From an uncultured Candidatus Peribacteria bacterium (GTDB taxonomy: Bacteria; Patescibacteriota; Gracilibacteria; Absconditabacterales; Absconditicoccaceae), in assembly GCA_964468245.1 (NCBI GenBank), contig CAYXTU010000001.1, positions 1-41,190 of the forward strand: a stretch of DNA of 41,190 nt, in the 5' to 3' direction. The first letter of the stretch is position 1. Each line of letters opens with the position of its first letter. Below the pieces are notes generated by a model, which saw nothing but the letters and a program-made list of their open reading frames with translations, had not been told where the DNA came from and did no database searches. Shown one piece after another: positions 12,230 through 41,190 of this stretch. The position numbers were made by a program, and so were the translations under genes.

Positions 12230-13340
12230 AAGACTACGTCTGTAATTACACCTACGGTCGTAATTTTTCTGTTGATTTTTTTGCAAAATTACTTCTTTTC
12301 TTTATACTTTATATTGTCTGTCGGGTTCGTCCCATTTTGCCGGACCAGTCTGATCTGGCACAGACATCAAAACGCTTCGCAATTTCTGCGGAGTTTTTTG
12401 ATTATAGCGAAAGTATATTTTTATTATTGAGTGAAAGTAGTGATTTCATTTGTGTTATTGCTGTTTGATTGAGTATTTGAAGTCTTTCTGATTGGGGTGT
12501 TTTCATTTTGATAAATTGTGCATTCATACTTTCTATATTTGCTAAAATAATTAATTGTTCAATAGTTGCTCCATCTCTTATATTTCATTTTCCATTTTTA
12601 TTTTCATCTCTTCGTTGTTTTGCTGTTTTGCCAAAAAGTGCTTTGTTGAGTATATCTGCCTCATCGGCGTAGATTACATTAATTTCTGTTGGTGAAAGCT
12701 CTTTTGGAATCAAATATTCTTTGATTGAATCTGTATGTATCTTGTAATTTACTTTTGTCAAAAATCTTTTTACATTCCAATCTAATGAGTTTGTTTCTTC
12801 TTGTTTGAGTCTTTGAAACTCTTTGATAAAATATAACCTAAACTCTACTGATATTCGATTGGCAAATTCTAATGCAATATCTTTGTGAGCAAATGTTCCT
12901 CATCCATATTTTCATGATTTACTGATAATGCCTATAGCTCCAGTCTTTTCTATCCATCTTTGGGGAGATAGAACAAAAGAATTGAAGCCTGCTTCGTTTT
13001 TAAACTGGTCGAATTCGACCAGTTTAAAAGTTGGATTATATAGTTGTTCCCAAAGACCTAAAAATGCTATAGTTTCTTTGTTTCTAAGCCAATTTTTTAC
13101 AACATCAGCTGGTAATAAGGGGTTTTTGTATTTGGCTATATCGGTTAGACTAATATAGTCAGCATCACTATTTTGAATGACTTTGATTTGTGTTCATTTC
13201 ACTTCTAAGATCAGAGATTCTGGCATTTTTTCTTGTTCAAGAAATAAAACTTCATATATGTGAAGTATAATTATTTCTTTCTGTATATCAAGATAATTTT
13301 TGACAAACGCTTTTTATTCTTTATAGAACTATCTTTTGTT
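12230..13340. mobile_element. ~1.1-kb single-gene insertion (KilA-N cassette) bounded by duplicated typA 3' ends
   Basis: Lies between the two 84-bp typA-end copies. Contains only the reverse-oriented KilA-N gene plus a structured GC-richer tail (12335-12400). No recombinase gene. Confidence 0.55.
12402..13226 (-). CDS. KilA-N domain-containing protein (274 aa)
   Basis: ATG 13226 to TAA 12404..12402, frame checked triplet by triplet, 4 in-frame TGA. Sequence ISLTDIAKYKN…VVKNWLRNKETIAFLGLWEQLYNPTFK.VEFDQFKNEAGFNSFVLSPQRWIEKTGAIGIISKSGKYGGGTFAHKDIALEFANRISVEFRLYFIKEFQRLK matches, from memory, the widespread phage-associated KilA-N family. Confidence 0.75.
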
Positions 13341-13424
13341 GTAGAAATCACTCCAAAAAATATCAGACTCAGAAAAGTATTTCTTACTGATTCTGAGAGG
13401 AAGAAGAATTGAGTGAAGAAGTAA
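13341..13424 (+). pseudogene. orphaned copy of the typA 3' end (28 codons incl. stop), probably the ancestral end
   Basis: Encodes the same peptide [27 protein letters not shown] as 12146-12229 and is followed directly by a strong terminator. No typA sequence lies upstream of 13341. Confidence 0.8.
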
Positions 13425-13447
13425 AAAAAGCCCGAAAGGGCTTTTTT
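13423..13447. terminator. bidirectional rho-independent terminator
   Basis: aaaaaa-agccc-gaaa-gggct-tttttt: perfect stem flanked by an A-run and a T-run, between convergent typA (relic) and the 59-aa ORF. Confidence 0.8.
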
Positions 13448-13527
13448 GTGTTAGTGATAATGTCAGAGTCTCGCAAGACGTCCGAAGGATTTCATTGTAG
13501 GCTCTGTTGTAGGTTTGTATATGATGA

Positions 13528-13707
13528 TTACAATAGTCCATTTTTAATAAGATCCAGATTTATTTCTTTCATTAGGTCTTCTTGCTTATCTCTTATAAAT
13601 TTTGAAATTTCATCTGAATGTTTTTTGTTGTTTTCAATGATTTCAATGTTTTTTGGATCGCTGAAAAACTCTGAGACTGATTGAGGTGTTGTTTTCTTTT
13701 CCATCAT
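13528..13707 (-). CDS. small hypothetical protein (59 aa)
   Basis: ATG ATG at 13707, TAA 13530..13528. MMEKKTTPQSVSEFFSDPKNIEIIENNKKHSDEISKFIRDKQEDLMKEINLDLIKNGLL. Starts 25 nt after the third proS-end relic. Confidence 0.45.
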   Translation of the reverse strand: MMEKKTTPQSVSEFFSDPKNIEIIENNKKHSDEISKFIRDKQEDLMKEINLDLIKNGLL

Positions 13708-13732
13708 GTATGGGGGTATATAATAAAATCTT

Positions 13733-13771
13733 TTAGTAACGTAGAAATAATATTTTTTTGCTTAAATTACC
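13733..13771 (-). pseudogene. third, most decayed relic of the proS 3' end
   Basis: Minus strand reads GGT AAT TTA AGC AAA AAA ATA TTA TTT CTA CGT TAC TAA (…SKKILFLRY*). Compare the real proS end …STKRVLFARSY*. It is followed by the same gttactaaaag… downstream sequence and overlaps the GNAT stop codon. Confidence 0.55.
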
Positions 13772-14208
13772 TTTAATTTGTATAAGTACATTAGGTTGTT
13801 TTTATTTTCCTTTCCGTACGGTTCTTTTATTTTTTTTGTTAGTTTAAATCATAATTTTTTGTGGAGATTGTTTGATTCTATGTATTCTGGTCATACTAGG
13901 GCATGAATATCTTTTTTTATTTTTTTGGCTTCATGTATGACTTTTTGATATAACATTTTTCAAATATGTTGTCCTCTATACCTTGGATCTACAACTATAT
14001 CCGTTACATATATCGTATCGTTTTTCCCAATAAAACTAACTATTGCACCGATTAGTTTGGTTTGATCTTTTGCAACAAAAACGAATCAATAATTAATAAA
14101 TGCTGAGTTTTCATATACATTTCCTACATATTTTTCGTTTCGAATTTTTTTTTCAAGGTCTATGATAGCAAAATTGTCTTGTATCTTGGCTTTGCTTATA
14201 GTAATCAT
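13762..14208 (-). CDS. GNAT-family N-acetyltransferase (148 aa)
   Basis: Frame checked; 4 in-frame TGA. Acetyl-CoA motif A reads IVVDPRYRGQHI-G-KMLYQKVIHEAKK. C-terminal part reads LHKKL-G-FKL. Confidence 0.7.
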
Positions 14209-14576: not shown

Positions 14577-16106
<1,530 letters not shown>

Positions 16107-16757: not shown

Positions 16758-17744
16758 TTATTCTAATGTTTTTGGTAAAGTAAAAGAAAATCTTGTTCAT
16801 TTTCCATCGGTTCATGATGTGTGTGTTATCTTGCCACCTACTTTGTCGATATATGTTTTGCACAATTTTAATCATAATCCCGTCCCTTTTGTTCACTCGT
16901 TTCCTTGAGTTGTGTATCCTGTTTCAAAAACATCTACTCATTCAGGTATTCCTTTTCCATTGTCTTCTATATAAAAAGTAATATTTTCTGGTGTTTCTTT
17001 TTCTATTCAGATAATTATTTTTCCTCAAAGTTTGCTAAACTTGATTGCGTTGCTTATCAGATTTTCAATAACTGATGTATATATATCTTGGTAGGAGTGT
17101 ATTTTTTTGTCTAATGGAATACTATTTTCTATAGTTATATTATTTTTTTGAATACTATATTCTTTTTCTTCTAGTATCTTTTGGGTTGTTTGGTATATAG
17201 AGTATTGTGATGTTTTGTATATGTCTTCTGCGTTGAATACGCTCTCTTGTATCTGGTTTTTGGCTTCCGATATACAAGTAATACTTGTTTCCAAGATATG
17301 TTTTTTGAATTCTTTGGTGTATGTTTTTTCATCCATAGCAAAGAGTATATTTCCTGTTGTTGCTTTTATTTTGTGAATGATGTCAGCTATTTTTTTGTAT
17401 GCTAAAGGTAGAGTTTGTATCTCTTTTCCAAATATATCGCAATATTGTTTTAATTTTTGAGATGCTTTTATTGCTGGTTCCAAAAGTTCCTCTATGTCTT
17501 TGATATCATATTTGTCTATTGTGGGTATTTGTGTTTTGAGTCCTGCAATACTTCACAACATGTCCAATAAAGATTTATCAATATCTCTTTTGATTTTGGG
17601 AAAATTTTCCTGGGTAAATTCAGTATAGGGTAGGTTTGAAAGTGCCTCATGAATAGCTAGTTTTCTAGCATCTTCTATTGATTGTTGTGATGTACTGTCG
17701 GTTTCTGGGTTTGGGATACTGTTGTTTGTTTTTTCGTTTTTCAT
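16758..17744 (-). CDS. soluble histidine-kinase-like protein (328 aa), no adjacent response regulator
   Basis: Pieces 17553..17744 and 17025..17483 plus the downstream part are in one frame (checked). HATPase motifs: N box VIENLISNAIKFS, G1 YIEDNGKGIP, G2 GTKGTGLGLKLC, then GKGTRFSFTLPKTLE followed by TAA 16760..16758. No N-terminal TM segment. H-box not confidently placed. Confidence 0.7.
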
Positions 17745-17814
17745 TTTTCATGAAGTATATGTATCATATAAACGATATAATTATACTCATATACTCTGTA
17801 AATAGCAAATTTAT

Positions 17815-20800
17815 TTACAATCTGATTTGCATTTTTGCAAGTGGCTGTTTGACGGCCATTTTGTTTTTTGATCTAATGAAAAGACCAAGAGAGATTATTC
17901 TTCTCACTATTTCTGTTTCTTCAAGTAACTGTTTGTCGATATATTTTTGTGAGTAGAGGGGAAGGTGTTCTAGGTGAATAGAATTTCCTTCTACTTTTCA
18001 TTTTGTAGTAAACTTTTGCAGTTCTAAATAAATATGTTCGCTGACAAATGGTGCGAATGGTGCACATATTTTCATATAGCTTTGTAGTACTTCAAACAAG
18101 GTGTTAAACGCTGATTGTTTATCTTTGTTCATACCTGATGCTCGGAATCTTCTTCTTGATCTTCTGATAAATCGATTATTTAATTTTTCTATAAATCCAA
18201 GTACGAGTTTTGCGCTTGTATCGAGGAAGTATTTATTCAATTCTTGTTCGACTTGAATACCCAAGCTGTGAAGTTCTGCGAGTATTCGTTTGTCCAATTC
18301 GTTGTCTATACTGTAGGTAGGAAGCTTAATTGCTTCGAGTTTGTCGAGTGTGGCTGGTGTGGTGTAGAGTGTCGGTCGTAGTTGTTTGAAATTTACATCG
18401 TGGGAAATAATCAGCATATTTTGTCCTGTTCATTTTTTGATTAATTTCTTGTATACACCTATGGTGTCCATGCTTTCGCCTGATCGTAATTTTTTATCTG
18501 TTTTGATTTTTATTTTTTTGCCTCTATATTCTTTCATGATATTTGCGACTGCTTCTGCCGTCTGGACTGTTCTCAATGCAGGGCTTGCATAAATGATATC
18601 TGGATTGATTCTCAAAACATTTTCGATGAATTTTGGATCTTTCATCGCTTGGATTCCTTCTTCTGCTAATGGGTGATCAACTAGTTGTCCATTGGCTTTT
18701 GCGTGTCTCATAAAATACAATGTTGTGTTGTCCGTAGTCCATTTGTCTACGTTCGCATAGGTCTCGAAAAATTTGTATCCATTCATGATTGAAGCCGTGA
18801 AGTCTTTGTATATTTGTTCTACTCATTTCTCTGAAAATCTTACTCCTTCTGCTTTTACTCATGGCGAAGAGAGGAGGTAGAGTCTGTACGCGTCCGTTCC
18901 ATATTTTGAAAATAAATATTCTGGATCTGGATAATTCTTCAATTTTTTTGACATTTTCTTTCCGTCTTCCGCAAGGACGAGACCATTGATAATGACGTTG
19001 TTGAATGAGTTTTGTTTCATGATAGCATTGCCTACTACATGCATTCCTCTAAATCGACCTCTGGTTTGATCCAATCATTCCATAATGAAATCTGCAGGGT
19101 AAATTAATTTAGAATTCAAAATTCAGAATTCAGAATTTTCTTTTCCTGTATATCCTGCCTGTCAAAATGGCATAGAGCCTGATTCAAATCGACAATCCAT
19201 AACTTCTGGGATTCTACGATATTCTTTATTTCATTTTTTGAATCGATAGGTATCTACGTATGGTTTGTGAAGATCCATTTCCCTGTTTCTGTCGTTGTCT
19301 CGGTAGCGAATAGTTATCTGTCCGTTTTTTGGAGAATAATCATATTTTTTTGTCAGATAATCAAAATCTTTGAATGTTTTTTGTATCAAAATAACGGAGT
19401 CTTTGTGTGTTATGGTGACGATTGTTTTTGTTGCAAATTTTTCGTTCACTTCGAGTGTATATGCTTTGCATCTAGCAATTACTTCATCTATAGATTCTCA
19501 TTCGTTTGAAAGTTTTGTATTTGTTGGTCTGTTTATGGTAAGATTAGCTGTCCAGATTTTGTCTTGAAGCTCAGGTATGATAATGTCTGTCGTTCTGAAG
19601 TCTACATAAAGTCTTTCATTGATTTGGAAGAGATTCTGTTTCGAAGTATCCTGGATATAGGATTGGATTTCTTTTTTGTTTCGAAGGTCCTGATATATTT
19701 TTTGGATGTCTTGATATTTTTTTTGAATATCTGCAATGCTGTCGGGAAATTTCTTTTCCAAAAAAGGAAGCACAGTTTGGAGTGATCTTTCTAGCGGTGT
19801 GATAATAATCACTCGATCATCTTTTTTGAGAGAAGCAAGATATTTACTTACTATTTTCGCTTGTTTCAAACCGTTTTTATTAAGCTGTGTTTTGCTGAAA
19901 CTATCGTGCATATGTGTTTCATTGTATACCGTTTCTCCGTGTCTGATGATAACATTTTTGGTTAAGTTTTGTGACCCGGTTCTTGTTCATTGATAGATTT
20001 CTTCTAGTGTTCCTGCTACGATAATGTCTTCTGGTTTTTTTGTATTTTCCCAGATAGGTAGTGGAGATCATCGATATCTATTTCTTGCAAGATTCCAATC
20101 TGGTGCAGATTTTAGTACATCAGTAAATCTTTTTTTGACCGTTTCTGGTATAAATCATATTTTCTCTGCGTTGGGTACGGTTATTTTTGTGAGTTCTTGC
20201 TCTTTGATAAACCAGCTTGTAAGCGCTTTGGAAATCAATGGTGTATCACATCTTCGGCAGTGTGGATAGGAGTGTTCGTATGATCTTTGTCCGATAAGTT
20301 TTCCTTCGTCTTTGAGTCTTTGGATGATGTCTTTGTTGGCGTCGTAGACTCTCGTACCTTTTCGTTCTGGCACCTCGTCGGTGAATTCACCGTAGTCGTT
20401 TACTGGCAAGAAAAGCCAGTTTTTGCTGTCGTCTCTTGGCAAAAATTGTGCCACGGCATTGTAATCTTCCATACCAAACGCTGGTGCAATGTGGACGATA
20501 CCTGTTCCATCTTCGGTGCTGACAAATTCTCCTGCTATGATTTTGAAAAATTGTTCTTTGTATTTTTTATCGATTTTACTGTTGTTGATATATTGGAACA
20601 GTGGCTCGTATTTTAGTCCAACCAGCCCTTCTCCTTGTATAGTTTTGATGAGAATATATTCGTCAGGATTTCTATAATATTGTTTCAAAAGATTTTCTGC
20701 TATGACAAAATATTCCTTCATTGTTGGATCGTAGACTACGCTGTAACGAATATGATTTCCTATAGCAAGAAACATATTGCTTGGTAATGTCCATGGTGTG

Positions 20801-21951
20801 GTGGTTCGCGCTAATGCACTTACTTTTGCGTTTGGATCTGTATGTTCATATATCTTCTTTTGGTAGAGATAGAGATCATAAAATTGACTCATAATCTCCA
20901 TATCATCATCGACGATGGTATTTTCTATTTTCACAGCAAATCCCAATGCATTGTCTGATGGTATGATTTCTGCTCGTACCATTTGTGGTAATTTTTCTGG
21001 CTCCATGAGTTTTGGTTCTCCTTCTATCTCTATTTCAAACATATTGAGATTAAATAATCCTCCACGTAATATTTGTTTTACGCTTCCTAATGCTTTTATT
21101 GTTTTTACTTCAACTCCCAATTCTTCTGAAATTTCTTTTTTGACTGTTCATTCAAGCGTGTCTCCTTTTTCTACCTTGCCTCCTGGACAAAGATATTTTT
21201 GAGCTTTGACACTATAATTCATAAAAATCCTTCCATCACGTTTTATGATGCAATCTACGATTTCTACGAATCCGTCTGGAGTCATTTCGTATTGATCGAA
21301 ATTGAAGTTCCATTGATTGTTTATTCTATCTCGAAGAAGTGGAAACTTTATCGTAATCGCTGGATCTTGTCTGTCTTTGTATCCATCGTTGACCTCTGCA
21401 TTGGAAAGTGATGTTGCGCAGCTTGGACACATCCACTGAATATTAAATCACTTGTAGACTAAGTTCTGATTGTACATATTTTGAATTATTCGTATTACAG
21501 ATTCCATAAAATCTAGGTTCATCGTATAATATGCATGATCCATATCTGCCCATCTTCCAATTCGATCTCCGAATGTTCTTCGTTCATCACTAGTATTACT
21601 TACATATTTTCTACATTCTTCTACGAAATTTTCTATACCGATTTTGTTTTCTATATCTTTTTTACCATCGATTCAGAGTTTTTGCTCTACGGCTTTTTCT
21701 ACCGGCAAACCGTGACAATCTCGTCATCGGTCTCTATTTACCTTGTATCATTTCATTGTTTTGTATCTGAGGATAGTATCTTTCATCGATCCAACTAATC
21801 CATGTCCAAAATGAGGTGTCCCTGAAGCAAATGGAGGACCGTCATAGGTGACAGATTGAAATTTTTCTGAACGTTGTTCGAGGGATTTCTCGAAAATTTT
21901 ATTTTCCTTCCAATATGCGTTGAGATCTTGGATGAATTCTTTTTGAGACAT
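17815..21951 (-). CDS. ileS: isoleucyl-tRNA synthetase with three in-frame domain insertions (1378 aa)
   Basis: Eight track ORFs (21748..21951 through 17998..18417) are all in the same frame. Every gap was translated and contains only TGA (about 17 in total). Motifs: GTPHFGHGL (HIGH), RTTTPWTLPSN, YPHCRRCDTPL, DCRFESGSMPF, GLDQTRGRF, KMSKKLKNYPDP. True stop is TAA 17817..17815. Confidence 0.9.
18310..18738 (-). other. second, SixA-like histidine-phosphatase domain inserted in the IleRS anticodon-binding region (~140 aa)
   Basis: Lies between …FFETYANVDKW and IDNELDKRILAEL…. TLYFMRHAKANGQ, …LAEEGIQAM…, YASPALRTVQTAE, MLIISHDVN. Confidence 0.6.
19279..19956 (-). other. histidine-phosphatase (PGM/cofactor-dependent mutase fold) domain inserted in IleRS (~225 aa)
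   Basis: Lies between …PIWENTKKPEDIIVAGTLEEIYQ… and MDLHKPYVDTYRF…. NVIIRHGETVYNE (RHG catalytic His), …LNKNGLKQAKIVSKYL…, …IIITPLERSLQT…, and a second His in TIVTITHKDSVILI. Confidence 0.65.
20845..21336 (-). other. Nudix-like domain inserted in the IleRS editing-domain entry (~160 aa)
   Basis: Lies between …DPAITIKFPLL and …ARTTTPWTLPSN. PGGKVEKGDTLE-G-TVKKEISEELGVEV aligns position for position with the MutT Nudix box GGKIEMGETPEQAVVRELQEEVGI, with E to D and R to K substitutions. Confidence 0.65.
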
Positions 21952-22190
21952 GATAAAACGACTAAACGATAAAAGCTCACTATGTTCGCGATAAAATGAT
22001 AAATGCTGCGCGATAAATGCTCACTATGTTCGCGATAAAATGATAAATGCTGCGCGATAAAATGATAAATGCTGCGCGATAAAATGATAAATACCCTTTG
22101 GGCGATAAAATGATGTTTTTTATCGATTTATCTTTTTATCATCCGCGAAAGCGGATTTTTATCATTTGGGTTTCGTAGTTGAATAGTGAA
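21952..22190. repeat. array of ~22-bp tandem repeats (GATAAAATGATAAATGCTGCGC and variants) plus inverted copies, abutting the ileS start codon
   Basis: About 7 head-to-tail units from 21952 to about 22110 (three of them identical). These are followed by ttatcgatttatctttttatcatccgcgaaagcggatttttatcatt, which contains reverse-oriented units and an atccgc-gaaa-gcggat hairpin. Confidence 0.85.
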
Positions 22191-29132: not shown

Positions 29133-32100
29133 CTATGGGTTGAGGAGTGTTTTGAGGAGAGGATTAATAATGTTTCTTGTTGTTGGTCCAAGATATCCTG
29201 CTCAGGTGTCGTCTTTGTCTGTTATAATGCTGTTGTTGAGTTGAAATTGGAAGAGTGCAGCTATCGTTGCGGAGGTGTTTATGCCGTTGATTGTTCCGGT
29301 AAAATATTTTTGTGATTTGAGAAAGTACTGGAGATATTTTACTCCAATGTCGCTATCTCCCGCTGTGTATCCTGCACTGAATTGATAATTTTTATTTAGG
29401 TTTTGTAAGAATTGTATTTCTGCGCTTGTTGTTTGTGTCGTTGTGCTTGTTGTTTTTTTTGCTGGTACAAATACTTTTGTTCCTCGAAGAGAGGTGAAAT
29501 TGAGATAAGAACTTTTTGTTATAGCTTTGTCGGATCTCATCATCATAAGCATTACATATCCTCTAAGTTCTCGATTGAATGGTTTGTCTTTTTTGGTAAT
29601 GATTTGTTTTTCAAATAGTGCATCCAAATGTTTTTGGTATCGATTTTGTCCTCCGTTGTAGGTGTCTCCTCGTAATGCTCTAGAAAGTGTTGTCCCAAAT
29701 ATTGCTCTATTTACTTGTCCGTTGGGATTAAATTTGTCTGCTGGTGTTCCATTGGTTTTGAGTCCCATAAGTCCAAGCTGACATGCTTTGATTGCATAGG
29801 ATTGAAATTCTTGTGTTTCATTTTGCATATCCGAAAATACACATTTTCTTGTGGTATTTGGTGTCTGTCCCAAAATATTTATTGCGTATTCTGACATCAT
29901 TTTGGATAGGTGAGATCTGATTAATATTCCTGTCATATTTGCATAATTGATGTCAGTAACAGTAGTTATTTTAGCATTGTATCCATAGAAATATGCGTCA
30001 GTGAGTTCTTTGTTGAACGGTGATGAAAATGTTTTTCGTGTTCCTGTGTTGGTCGCTATTATGGTTCCTGTAGCAATTATTCCTGTACTTGCTTCTATTT
30101 TTGTCGGATCTTTGCAGAGTCCATCATTAGGATTTCATGAATAATCACCATCTACACATACATCAGTTCCACATGATTTTGCTAGGTTTCCTCATTGACA
30201 AGAGACACCAGATTTTTTTGCATATAGACCATTTGTACATACTAATTGACTATCTGTACAGGTAGAAATCATACTTCATCCTCCTCAACCTCCTCAACCT
30301 CCACCACCTGATGGTGCAGAATAATTTATGGTAAAGCTTGGGATGGTTAGTCGTGATGAGCTATTTCCTGCGACGTCAGTAACTTGGACTTTGCAGGTAG
30401 AATAGGTCGCATTTGCTAAGGTGAAGGTCGTTGTGTTTCTTCACGAAATAGCAGTTGTTAGTGATCCATTTCCACAAGATCATGAATAGCTTACCGTTCC
30501 TGCTTCGTCTCCCGTAAAACTAAACGTCGCTGTACTATTTGAAACGCTTGGTGCAGATCATGTAAGTATTGGTGCTGTGGTATCTCGTATAAATTGCATT
30601 GTCCCTGTTGTTGTGTTGTTGGCATTGTCTTTGACGAGTACTTGTACTATATATGTTCATTCTGTGCTAGCGCTTGCTGTGGGATCTTGTAGGGTTGCTG
30701 TGGTAAATGTTATAGTTCCTGGTCCAGATACTTTGGATCGTGTGTATCACGAAATCCCTGAAACATCTCCATTTACGGTGATGTCTATTCCTGTTGTAGC
30801 ATTTACTCTTTTGTCTGCTGGCATAGTAACTATTGGCGCTGTCTTATCTATTTTGTACATTTGTACTCATGTTTTTACATTACCTGCTTTGTCTTGTACG
30901 CAAGCGTATATGTATCACGTTCCATCAGCTGTCAATACTGGGACTGTTGTCGATCATCCGTTGCAATATTCATCAAATTGAACATCGGTTCTATAGAGTA
31001 CTCCCGTAGATCGAATGCCGGCAAGCGTGTCTCATGATGTTGTGGTTCCTGTGGCATTATAATTTCTTCGATTGGTATTTGTATCGGTAAAAGTGATTGT
31101 CGGTTTGGTTGAATCAACGATAAAGTCTGTTGTTTGTACATATGGACTTGTCAATCATCACTTGTCTTGGTATTTTATACCAAGTCTTATAGTGCTTGAA
31201 TTTGTACTTGTGCTTGGTGTTCGTAAATAAGAAAAGGCTCCATCTCCTAATGTTGCGATAGTAGTAAAACTTCCTCATGTAGATCGTTCTAATATTTTCG
31301 CAGAAAGATTATTATCTCATCATCATGTTCGTGTAACCCAATATCCACTTCATCATTTTAAAAATTCTCATCATGTAGGATAAATAAATGTTGGACTTGT
31401 TGGTGGTGTGCTATCTATTTTAAATTGGTTTCCTGTAAATATTGCTGTATTGCCTGCAAGATCAGTTGCAATTATTCTGATTTGTGCTGATGAGGTGTCT
31501 ATGGAATTTACTGTTCGTGATAAGTTTCAGTTGTTGTTTGTTCATGTTGTTATGATCGAGGTATATGATCATCCCAAAAATCCGTTATTGGAAAATTCTA
31601 TCCTGATGGGTGTCAGTCAAAAATTTATTTCTGTTCATGTGTTTCGTGTAATGTTGTATGTGTTTGCTGTTTGCCAATAATTTGTGATTGTTGGACTCGT
31701 GATGCTTATTCCAGCTGGTGCGGTCTTGTCGATAATAAATATTGCTCCTGTAGAGTTTCCAGCTTTGTCAGTCACGATAAATGTTTTTATTCCGTCTGTA
31801 CTTATTGGCGTTCATGATGTATATGCTGTACCATTTATTGTCGCTCCAGAAATATTGGTATCATTAAAGGTAATTGTTTGATTGCTATTGTAGTAGATTC
31901 ATGAAAGTACGCCTGTTCGTGTTGGCATAGTTTTGTCTATGGTGAAGGTAGCTCATGTAGTGTTACCTGCAAGATCGGTTATGATACATATATATGTTCC
32001 TTCTGTAGAAAATATTGTCCCACTACTAAATGGACTTCCGTTTATTGTTGCTCATGATATATTCGTATCGGTAAATGTTATAGTGATGTTTCATGATATA

Positions 32101-33551
32101 TATGTTCATGATGTTGTTCATGCCCATGTTGGTTGTGTTTTGTCTATAGTGAAGGTAGTTCATGTAACATTTCCCGCTTTGTCCTGTATGATAAGTGTAT
32201 ATATTCCATCTGTAGTAATAGCTGTTCCGCTTGTATATGCTGTTCCGTTGAGTGTTGCTCATGAGTAATGTGTTTCTGTAATGCTTGGTGTTATGTTTCC
32301 ACTATAATACGTGCCGCTGATAATGTTATTTATTGTTGGTTGCGTTTTGTCTATCGTAAATATTGCTCCTGTAGCATTACCCGCAAGATCAGTAACTATG
32401 AGTATATGGGTTCCTTCGTTTGCTATAGTGTCTCAGCTTGAAATACTTGTGCCATCTATTGTTGCATTATCGCTGAAAGTAATCGTTACATTACCAGAAT
32501 AATGTGTTCATGATAGTACTCCTGTAAAGGTAGGTGCGGTTTTGTCGATAGTGAATGTCACTGCGGTTGTATTGTTTGCAAGATCAGTAACAATAAGTTC
32601 GTAGGTTGTTTCACCAGTTATTTGTGTACCGGGAATATATTCCGCTCCGTTGAGTGTCGCTCAGGAAAAATTTGTTTCATTAATTGCTGGAGTGATATTT
32701 CCACTAAAATAATTTCCACTACTAATATTGTTTACCGCTGGTGGTATCGTATCTATAGTAAATATTGCTCCTGTAATATTTCCTGCTCCATCAATTACGA
32801 TCAAGGTATATATTCCGTCTGTACTCAGAGTATCTCAACTATTTATTGGTGTTCCATTTATTGTTCCTGTGTCGCTGAAGGTGAGGGTTACGTTACCAGA
32901 ATAATATGCTCATGATAGTACTCCTGCAAAGGTAGGTGTGGTTTTGTCGATAATAAATATTGCTCCGGTAGTATTACCTACAGTATCTACAACAATGAAT
33001 TCATAGCTTCATTCAGTGGAAATCACCTCTCAGCTTGTGTAAGCCGCGCCATTTAGCGTTGCTCAAGAAAGATTTGTATCATCAAAGGTAATTGCTATGT
33101 CTCCAGAATATATCGTTCATGAAGTCACTCCGTTGAATGTTGGTATTGTTATATCGAGTAGTGTAGTCGCGGTAATTTCTCAGGTAATAAGATTTAGTCA
33201 TGAGTCGAAAATACTTCATGATAATATAATTGCTCATTCACTTAGTGATGATGCGTTGAAATTTATCGTGATAGTTGTTTCATTTTCTCCTGTACTTGTA
33301 TGTGTTTGAGAAATTGTATTTACACTTGTATCGATAAGCTCCATTACGACTATATCACCAGAATCAAGTGTCCCACTAAATTGCATGGTTACATCGTAAT
33401 TTGCGACATTAGCAATGTTTATGTTTGCTCCAGTGATAGAATTTCCTATGGAATCTACCGTTGCTCACACGATATTTTTTACTAGAAATGTCGTCGAGAT
33501 ACATACCACAAAAAAAAGTGTACCAAAGATTCTTTTCTTTTGATGGAGCAT
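29133..33551 (-). CDS. giant repeat-rich cell-surface protein with C-terminal peptidoglycan-binding domain (1472 aa)
   Basis: Frame from ATG 33551 to TAG 29135..29133 walked triplet by triplet: no TAA/TAG and roughly 50 in-frame TGA. Signal/TM segment MLHQKKRIFGTLFFVVCISTTFLV. At least 8 tandem ~70-aa units of type SG.YYSGN.T.TF.D…ING…S.G.Y.LIVTD.AGN.TGA.FTIDKT.P. An 11-Gly linker. Cys-rich segment. C-terminal GDSDIGVKYLQYFLKSQKYFTGTINGINTSATIAALFQFQ (PG_binding_1-like). Confidence 0.85.
31390..33160 (-). repeat. tandem ~210-nt coding repeats (Ig-like modules) within the surface protein gene
   Basis: Recurring …AGN(T/A)TGA(I/T)FTIDKT(A/Q/T)P(T)… boundaries, seen 8-9 times in my translation. 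Boundaries are approximate. Confidence 0.6.
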
Positions 33552-33702
33552 GGTTGTTTTTTTGTTTCAAAATAAAATTTCTCTATATATAGTAATATCT
33601 TTTCTGAAAACAATTTTTCTTTTGGACTCGAGGACTACGAAACTCTTGTATTTATCTTTTTTATTTGATAATATATTGATTTTTCTCTGCTTTTGTGTAT
33701 AT

Positions 33703-34074
33703 ATGGGTAAACAAAAAATAAAAAAAATGAAAAAGAAAAAAAAATTTTTTATATCTCTGTATGATTTTGCAGAGGTATTTAAACAACCAGGCATCATAAT
33801 CGTTTGTGTTGTGTCGTTATTTATTTTTATAAATCTAGTTTATTTCAAATTTTTTCCCACATACAAAACAGATTTGCTTTTGTATGCCAGTGTTCTCCTT
33901 TTTGTCTATATTTCTAACGTCTTTTTGTTTTATGTCTCTTTTTCATCTTATTTGTACTATAGAACTAGAGGCATTCGTTATAGCTATCGCATAATTAAGT
34001 ATGTTTTGCTGTCATGTTTGTTTTATCTGATAGCAATTATTATAATTGTGTTTGTATATTTTTATACGAAATAA
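33703..34074 (+). CDS. small membrane protein (123 aa)
   Basis: ATG 33703 (MGKQKIKKMKKKKKFF…) followed by three hydrophobic segments. Uninterrupted to TAA. The longer 33550 start overlaps the surface-gene start and looks non-coding. Confidence 0.4.
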   Translation: MGKQKIKKMKKKKKFFISLYDFAEVFKQPGIIIVCVVSLFIFINLVYFKFFPTYKTDLLLYASVLLFVYISNVFLFYVSFSSYLYYRTRGIRYSYRIIKYVLLSCLFYLIAIIIIVFVYFYTK

Positions 34075-41132: not shown

Positions 41133-41190
41133 AAATGATAAAATGATAAAAGCTACGCGATAAAATGATAAAAGCTACGCGATAAAATGA
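41133..41190. repeat. GATAAAATGATAAAAGCTACGC tandem repeats (run continues past the right edge)
   Basis: At least two perfect 22-bp units plus partial units. Same family as 21952-22110. Confidence 0.85.

Follow-up and report, generated by a model that had tools for sequence, protein, structure and literature searches.

Why would an isoleucyl-tRNA synthetase (IleRS) carry three further enzymes inside its own chain? This is the question raised by the ileS gene in a 41,190-nucleotide stretch of DNA (hereafter the window; contig CAYXTU010000001.1, positions 1 to 41,190, assembly GCA_964468245.1) from an uncultured bacterium of the Absconditicoccaceae, in the Candidate Phyla Radiation (CPR). The gene encodes one polypeptide in which surface loops of IleRS contain three enzymes with autonomous folds: a Nudix domain (insert a) and two histidine phosphatase (HP) domains (insert b, or HPb, and insert c, or HPc). 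Here, we propose that the inserts are probably active hydrolases of nucleotides or phosphoesters tethered to a working synthetase, that they would be accessory to aminoacylation, and that HPc would be partly structural. The starting point was a sequence-only reading of the same DNA, whose core claim of one IleRS with a Nudix and two HP inserts is upheld by Pfam matches above the curated cut-offs and by significant profile matches to solved structures.

Architecture of the synthetase

In a scan of the whole protein, Pfam finds the synthetase families tRNA-synt_1 (2e-115) and Anticodon_1 (5e-26) together with His_Phos_1 (1e-21, in three stretches) and NUDIX (1.2e-6; 29 bits, above its gathering cut-off of 21.1). 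The NCBIfam ileS model TIGR00392, which stands for the class Ia enzyme, scores 772.7 bits (cut-off 621.4) in a match that the inserts split into four stretches. The signature motifs HFGH (aa 47-50) and KMSKK (aa 999-1003) are in place, with H47, H50, K999, M1000 and K1002 conserved in a set of 117 full-length homologs, to which all residue counts out of 117 below refer. In the same set the CP1 editing residues T383-P386, H487 and D496 are invariant, and GTGxVHxAP is present. Taken over HxGH, KMSK, the four zinc-site Cys, TTTP, GTGxVHxAP and the editing Asp, conservation is complete or nearly so. By these motifs the host enzyme is a complete type-2 IleRS, catalytic and editing motifs intact, and it looks fully functional.

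The core is like that of other type-2 enzymes, such as those of Priestia megaterium (IleRS2, 8c8u/8c8v), T. thermophilus (1ile) and yeast, in both sequence and fold: besides passing TIGR00392 it has strong partial similarity to MupA/MupB, and these structures are its top Foldseek matches. Unlike them, the window protein has about 550 aa of enzyme inserts at three loops and is without the C-terminal tRNA-binding domain (DUF5915, or the junction and N34-recognition domains).

Insert boundaries were drawn by alignment to insert-free relatives, in which the linkers at sites a, b and c measure about 9, 27 and 15 aa; the same three loops in the window protein measure about 173, 237 and 143 residues. 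Site a follows a strand ending in TIKF and precedes the Thr-rich editing peptide WTTTPWTLP; site b separates the RYWGSPLPIW and DLHKPYVD...DCWFESGSMP strands; and site c comes after the stem-contact fold (..FFETYANVDKW) and before the anticodon domain, whose first helix carries NELDKWILAEL. The coordinates first proposed for the inserts were essentially right and are refined in Table 1, but insert c, at first placed inside the anticodon-binding domain, actually occupies the junction before Anticodon_1. The excess length of the protein, put at about 300 aa in the sequence-only reading, stands only as a net balance, the actual figures being about 550 aa of inserts minus a DUF5915 of about 190 aa.

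Table 1. Positions in the window of ileS, the segments of its product and the adjoining repeats
Feature	Position	Strand	Evidence or remarks
ileS coding sequence	17815..21951	minus	1378 codons + TAA stop; 17 in-frame TGA (Gly), 22 CGA (Trp)
IleRS N-terminal Rossmann half, aa 1-205	21337..21951	minus	HFGH 21799-21813; CPSC zinc-site Cys 21418-21429
Insert a, MutT-like Nudix domain, aa 206-378	20818..21336	minus	Pfam, profile, AlphaFold, Foldseek
CP1 editing domain and central catalytic part, aa 379-654	19990..20817	minus	Thr-rich peptide WTTTPWTLPSN 20776-20808; GTGIVHIAPAFGMEDY 20461-20508; HCWRC 20248-20262
Insert b (HPb), branch-1 histidine phosphatase, aa 655-891	19279..19989	minus	R670, H671, N677, R722, E819, H849
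Second Rossmann half, KMSKK loop (18943-18957) and stem-contact fold, aa 892-1071	18739..19278	minus	
Insert c (HPc), minimal cap-less histidine phosphatase, aa 1072-1214	18310..18738	minus	R1082, H1083, R1127, H1184
Anticodon-binding helical domain, aa 1215-1378	17818..18309	minus	Pfam Anticodon_1 starts at aa 1220
Tandem repeats, period 22/44 bp, unit CGCGATAAAATGATAAATGCTG, 4 copies	21967..22096		Directly upstream of ileS start

Is the long frame read as a single product? Translation of the minus strand from 21951 to 17815 confirms the earlier description of a continuous ileS frame of 1378 aa interrupted by TGA only, with 1378 sense codons, a TAA end and TGA at 17/17 internal stops. The 22 CGA codons occupy conserved IleRS Trp positions, in GWDCHGLP, RYWGSP, DCWFESGS, HCWRC and NNWFIRRSRRRFW. 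Since CGA falls on conserved Trp sites and TGA is the sole internal stop, the code is one in which TGA is read as Gly and CGA as Trp, which is the code proposed for the Absconditabacteria (SR1) by Shulgina and Eddy (PMC8629427).

The same code is seen elsewhere in the window. CGA also stands on conserved Trp positions in ProRS (14577-16106), and across the 25 called open reading frames (ORFs) of the whole window the Trp codons CGA and TGG are used at 75 and 43 per 10,000 codons, with CGG rare (3.5 per 10,000) and TGA (Gly) at 194 per 10,000. The published CGA usage of Absconditabacteria is below 37 per 10,000 (PMC8629427), and the higher figure in the window suggests an advanced stage of CGA reassignment.

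Unusual length and many TGA codons are the only features that would point to an artefact, whether a mis-assembly, a read-through of separate genes, or inserts that are removed or expressed separately in an intein-like or split manner. This explanation is effectively excluded. Because the inserts alternate with IleRS segments along the chain, no part of it can be missing if the synthetase is to fold, and TGA and CGA sit on conserved Gly and Trp positions. Independent assemblies yield the same architecture in more than 120 clusters, and the gene aligns without gaps, over 1378 codons, with its counterpart in L082 (GCA_964614475.1). Neither the whole protein nor any isolated insert matched an intein-splicing, homing-endonuclease or other mobile-element family of Pfam; on this ground, and on that of the interleaved core segments, inteins and separate genes are rejected.

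The three inserts

Scanned alone, insert a matches Pfam NUDIX (PF00293) at 7.4e-8, with 32.9 bits against a gathering cut-off of 21.1. Its Nudix box (aa 258-280, 21112-21180) reads G-x5-D-x7-K-E-I-x-E-E-x-G-V, having D and K where the consensus GX5EX7REUXEEXGU has E and R, and E273, E276 and E277 are kept in 117/117 homologs. The box aligns position by position with that of E. coli MutT, 'FPGGKIEMGETPEQAVVRELQEEVGI'. In profile searches of the PDB the insert finds MutT 5x1x (5.6e-12), the MutT/Nudix protein 4dyw, the CTP pyrophosphohydrolase NudG (2rrk) and RppH. An AlphaFold model, made from the 81%-identical segment of the homolog P0003, has a predicted local distance difference test score (pLDDT) of 90.3 and a predicted template-modelling score (pTM) of 0.83, and its Foldseek matches are NUDT15, BdRppH and MutT 4dyw (template-modelling score, TM, 0.71; root-mean-square deviation 1.6 Å). 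The fold and catalytic motifs of insert a thus match those of stand-alone MutT, NudG, NUDT15 and RppH, and the insert is MutT-like but, scoring below the cut-off of the MutT model TIGR00586, not a demonstrable MutT ortholog.

Insert b alone matches His_Phos_1 (PF00300) at 1.6e-15 (57.7 bits against a gathering cut-off of 21.7). All catalytic residues of a branch-1 phosphatase are present (Table 1), and each of them is found in 117/117 homologs. Its best solved relatives by profile are the phosphoserine phosphatase PspA (4ij5, 7e-17), PhoE and CobC. For insert c alone the His_Phos_1 match is 2.7e-8 (34.2 bits, same cut-off); its two Arg and two His (Table 1) are kept in 105-107 of the 117 homologs, its acid residue being unmapped, and its profile matches are PspA, PhoE, Alr0221 and SixA, with the SixA matches in the PDB weaker than those to PspA and PhoE. 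In a model of the homolog P0037 the HP regions reach pLDDT values of 80-95 overall and about 90 for HPb, and Foldseek pairs them with PhoE, PspA and Rv2419c at TM 0.72-0.76; AlphaFold confidence for HPc is about 80-89.

The two phosphatases depart from their relatives in different ways. HPb shares its fold and catalytic motifs with PspA, PhoE, CobC and SixA but, unlike them, has about 55 aa of additional helical structure in its cap region, which is also extra relative to the other CPR versions. HPc is without a cap sub-domain, unlike the full-size site-c inserts of other CPR IleRS, which retain it.

These results bear out the families that the sequence-only reading had assigned to the first two inserts, a Nudix domain with a near-canonical box and a phosphoglycerate-mutase-like histidine phosphatase. 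The NUDIX and His_Phos_1 searches of the recoded translation were significant for all of inserts a, b and c, and the inserts are modelled as confidently folded domains whose structural matches fall in the same families.

Conservation and spread

How old and how widespread is this architecture? In SR1 it is shared by at least 120 protein clusters from independent assemblies, of 1345-1421 aa and 83-48% identity to the window protein. Those with a named source are Absconditabacterales, Absconditicoccaceae or SR1, their taxonomy being taken from the source names, as the genome-contig profile scan covered genomes outside SR1. The window ileS is 85% identical to that of L082, and the ratio of non-synonymous to synonymous substitution (dN/dS) between them is 0.13 for the Nudix domain, 0.10 for HPb, 0.075 for HPc and 0.04-0.09 for the core segments, values that are rough at a dS of 1.0-1.5, near saturation. 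By this measure purifying selection acts on each of the three inserts. Recoded codons are present within them, with TGA in the Nudix box and CGA as Trp codons. These recoded codons, the low dN/dS and the occurrence of site-b phosphatases across CPR phyla together indicate that the inserts are long-resident; they rule out a recent foreign acquisition, and the label 'foreign' that the domains first received is therefore dropped.

Relatives outside SR1 were collected with a search of 1.84 billion representative proteins (query P0029) and subsequent local profile searches. Among the 112 that are nearly full-length, 61 are insert-free, 39 have an HP at site b only and 6 are occupied at site c only; the remainder combine b and c (3), a and c (1) or a and b (1), or have a alone (1). 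The catalytic residues are largely kept in these proteins: at site b, R in 42/43, H in 43/43, R in 42/43, E in 39/43 and H in 42/43; at site c, R in 10/10, H in 10/10, R in 9/10 and H in 10/10; and in the Nudix domain, six box positions were checked and each is kept in 3/3. Named carriers of a site-b HP belong to Moranbacteria, Parcubacteria and the 'Patescibacteria group', and among the matches listed for species representatives they include Saccharibacteria, Paceibacteria, Nomurabacteria, Wolfebacteria, Peregrinibacteria and Peribacteria, the last two of which have a pair of tandem HP domains at this site. In the same matches, no site-b HP was seen in Falkowbacteria or in any non-CPR genome examined. 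The comparison with other IleRS thus both defines the insert boundaries and places variants of the architecture across the CPR.

On a rough neighbour-joining tree (791 core columns, 122 sequences), the minimum number of state changes is at least 22 for site b, 4 for site a and 5 for site c, and close relatives with and without the site-b HP coexist, for example in Moranbacteria. Within the three-insert clade itself, P0037 (L001 152-3721, Logan SRR22387758) has no Nudix insert ('ITIKFKITSKTMEQTYILAWTTTPW') and a clean 12-aa linker in its place, while its HPb is kept and its HPc is catalytically degenerate. As P0037 is nested in that clade, its lack of the Nudix domain points to secondary loss. 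Such frequent gain and loss argues that the inserts are accessory to aminoacylation and are turned over often.

Other enzyme families also use IleRS in this way. GNAT domains occur in P0175 and P0262, there too with an HP, and a P-loop kinase-like domain (AAA_18/AAA_33) occurs with an HP in P0138. The NCBIfam model NF040702 (ileS_w_GNAT) likewise describes an IleRS with an unrelated in-frame enzyme domain, but a GNAT domain and not a Nudix or HP domain, and the window protein is not a member (290.9 bits against a cut-off of 1999). Judged on these alignments, the three loops are insertion hot spots for several enzyme families, and the SR1 architecture is an extreme form of a CPR-wide pattern. 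The CPR variants seen (P0175, P0262, P0138 and P0122; L016, L043 and L072) include tandem site-b HPs and lengths of 1740-1859 aa.

The missing C-terminal domain and HPc

The window IleRS ends 6 aa after its Anticodon_1 match (17815-17835) and has no DUF5915, which is absent as well from all 120 SR1 homologs scanned. It is present in the 120 Moranbacteria-type relatives, with the exception of the apparent fragment P0338, and in the four GTDB CPR proteins scanned. No split-off C-terminal gene follows ileS (intergenic region 17745-17814), the next gene being unrelated in both the window and L082. A C-terminally truncated IleRS still activates Ile but cannot transfer it to tRNA, and the C-terminal domains read N34, separating tRNA(Ile) from tRNA(Met) (PMC11685878). 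How, then, might the SR1 enzyme manage without them? A site-c insert is found in all of the complete proteins that are without DUF5915 (the window protein, P0121, P0122, P0123 and P0126), and the two occur together in P0137, P0142 and P0143. In addition, HPc is retained after loss of its catalytic residues in P0024 (KDKD), P0036 (CNGD), P0037 (RHRS) and P0121 (HESS), and in P0121 both HP domains are degenerate and yet kept. This retention argues for a structural role of HPc besides catalysis, and it is a reasonable guess that HPc compensates for the lost tRNA-binding domain.

Could all of the inserts, by extension, be structural pseudo-enzyme scaffolds that enlarge a tRNA- or protein-binding surface, with catalysis irrelevant? 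The degenerate but retained phosphatases are what such a role would leave behind, and an IleRS that lacks its C-terminal tRNA-binding domain would need a replacement surface. However, 117/117 homologs in SR1 keep the catalytic residues of both the Nudix domain and HPb, and those of HPb remain about 90-100% conserved in distant CPR carriers, in which identity falls to about 35%, a pattern not expected of a mere scaffold. We therefore hold this explanation to be quite unlikely for the set of inserts as a whole.

Function of the inserts

What might three hydrolases do on a working synthetase? The closest precedent is mycobacterial MutT1, in which an N-terminal Nudix domain and a C-terminal RHG histidine-phosphatase domain serve nucleotide-pool control (PMC11784022). 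By analogy, the Nudix domain of IleRS would cleave dinucleoside polyphosphates or (damaged) nucleoside triphosphates (NTPs), leaving any remaining phosphates for the HP domains to remove. Both activities would be accessory to aminoacylation and not required for it. HPc would take on a structural, probably tRNA-holding role, leaving the SR1 IleRS free to lose its C-terminal tRNA-binding domain. Given their residues, the Nudix domain and HPb are likely to be catalytically active, as is HPc in this organism. Diadenosine tetraphosphate (Ap4A) or other side-products of the synthetase are possible substrates, and the suggestion of Ap4A and nucleotide hydrolysis made in the sequence-only reading is plausible. 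We give a probability of roughly 0.6 to this combined proposal of active, tethered nucleotide or phosphoester hydrolases on a working IleRS, accessory to it and with HPc partly structural.

The analogy has its limits. MutT1 is like the window IleRS in joining a MutT-like Nudix domain and a branch-1 HP in one polypeptide. Unlike it, MutT1 is a simple two-domain tandem without a synthetase, its activities have been measured whereas those proposed here are predicted from sequence, and it is not among the best PDB profile matches listed for the inserts.

Several further observations weigh against the proposal. Scores fall short of the cut-offs of the specific family models: the MutT 8-oxo-dGTP diphosphatase model TIGR00586 (29.4 against 97.9 bits), the SixA model TIGR00249 (42 against 74.5 bits, aa 1078-1196), and the PspA model NF045917 (52.5 against 350 bits), although PspA 4ij5 is the closest solved relative of HPb. 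The description of insert c as 'SixA-like' hence holds for its small size and not for family membership. With the curated mutT, sixA, PspA and CobC models all below cut-off, specificity cannot be read from homology, and the best matches of the HP domains are metabolic or broad phosphatases and not nucleotide-specific enzymes. In L082 there is a stand-alone HP gene besides, so that HP copies are not confined to the inserts. The full-length model of P0037 (1189 aa, from a 34-sequence alignment) is poor, with a pLDDT of 60 for the IleRS core and a pTM of 0.40, and the geometry of the inserts relative to the synthetic and editing sites is consequently not derivable from it. The roughness of the dN/dS values given above belongs here too.

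Do the inserts instead act on macromolecules? They could repair or unblock tRNA ends (3' phosphate or pyrophosphate, 5' triphosphate) or dephosphorylate proteins in the manner of SixA or PGAM5, as an in-cis tRNA-repair or anti-toxin function. About 10 aa separate the end of the Nudix domain from the Thr-rich peptide in the editing pocket, which is the docking place of the tRNA 3' end, and the RNA pyrophosphohydrolase BdRppH is among the structural neighbours of that domain. Insert c is of SixA type in size, with weak matches to SixA phosphohistidine phosphatases. The pairing of an HP with a P-loop AAA_18/AAA_33 domain in P0138 is reminiscent of RNA end-healing enzymes, and accessory or defence functions are typically distributed in such a patchy way. 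However, the SixA and RppH family models stay below cut-off, the Nudix box is nearest to MutT/NUDT15-type NTPases, and we know of no HP-family phosphatase that acts on tRNA ends. We consider an action on macromolecules unlikely.

The company that the inserts keep in other CPR synthetases bears on a further option, detoxification of IleRS inhibitors such as aminoacyl-adenylate mimics and nucleoside antibiotics, comparable to what GNAT and HIT enzymes do with processed microcin C-type compounds. The inserted families (GNAT, P-loop kinase, Nudix and HP) are all small-molecule-modifying enzymes, a GNAT-bearing IleRS already has its own model in NF040702, and the distribution is patchy and accessory-looking. 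Antibiotics of this kind are made by Actinobacteria. Cultivated CPR bacteria are described as growing as epibionts on Actinobacteria (PMC10633639). This case is purely circumstantial, and no inhibitor-related genes were seen near ileS. To our knowledge there is no HP-type resistance enzyme. A detoxifying role appears very unlikely, and we retain the hydrolysis of nucleotides or phosphoesters as our preferred explanation.

Neighbourhood of ileS

The repeat array that lies directly upstream of ileS (Table 1) may be regulatory. A further copy of the CGCGATAAAATGATAAATGCTG unit lies at 41156-41177, near the window end, and no copy of the unit is expected by chance; Rfam and tRNA scans of the whole window, the upstream repeat included, gave no matches. 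On the other side, 70 bp downstream of ileS, a gene on the minus strand (16758-17744) encodes a 328-aa protein whose sole domain is HATPase_c, the histidine-kinase-type ATPase. A link between this gene and the SixA-like insert is unlikely, as L082 has a small membrane protein at that position.

The stand-alone HP gene of L082 (12518-13135, 205 aa) lies between ProRS and BipA, and identity between its product and the inserted HP domains is low, about 31-33% over about 67 aa. In the window the matching slot (12402-14208) is instead taken up by genes for a KilA-N protein (12402-13226) and a GNAT acetyltransferase (13762-14208). Elsewhere in the window, a 1554-aa ORF on the minus strand (29133-33797) probably encodes a large surface protein: it begins with a hydrophobic N-terminal segment, has a run of Gly and contains many units ('FTIDKT.PT...SG..YSGN') that repeat every 55 aa or so and are rich in Thr, Gly and Asn. 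The sequence-only reading had also spoken of an insertion-prone genome. The neighbouring genes are of ordinary length, and the ordinary sizes of ProRS, BipA, AckA and ThyA speak against a general tendency of this kind.

Implications

Synthetases are already known to acquire inserted domains (PMC13114784). Our searches of the literature turned up no account of an IleRS with Nudix or histidine-phosphatase inserts, the word 'Nudix' in a Plasmodium IleRS paper proving to be an item in its reference list, and public homologs bear no annotation beyond 'class I tRNA ligase family protein' or 'isoleucine--tRNA ligase'. Among synthetases that host inserted editing or accessory domains, an essential enzyme with three catalytically intact, unrelated hydrolases would be unusual.

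One may go further and picture the CPR IleRS as a multi-enzyme hub, its MutT-like and HP modules working on the nucleotide side-products of the synthetase itself or on tRNA ends, and the SR1 HPc reading N34 of the tRNA. We put this forward as speculation, and doubtful in its full form. If true, a metabolic enzyme fold would have been recruited as a reader of tRNA identity in an organism with a rewritten genetic code. SR1, which also reassigns UGA and CGA, is without the usual IleRS C-terminal domains, and how its tRNA(Ile) identity is read is now a testable question.

The repeated gain and loss of inserts at three loops is, in addition, a natural experiment in domain insertion and, for bacteria of minimal genome, in the coupling of translation to nucleotide metabolism. 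Saccharibacteria, which carry the site-b HP, make up most of the few cultivated Patescibacteria (PMC10633639), and hence this biology may be experimentally reachable. The finding thus has relevance for synthetase evolution, for CPR biology and for tRNA identity.

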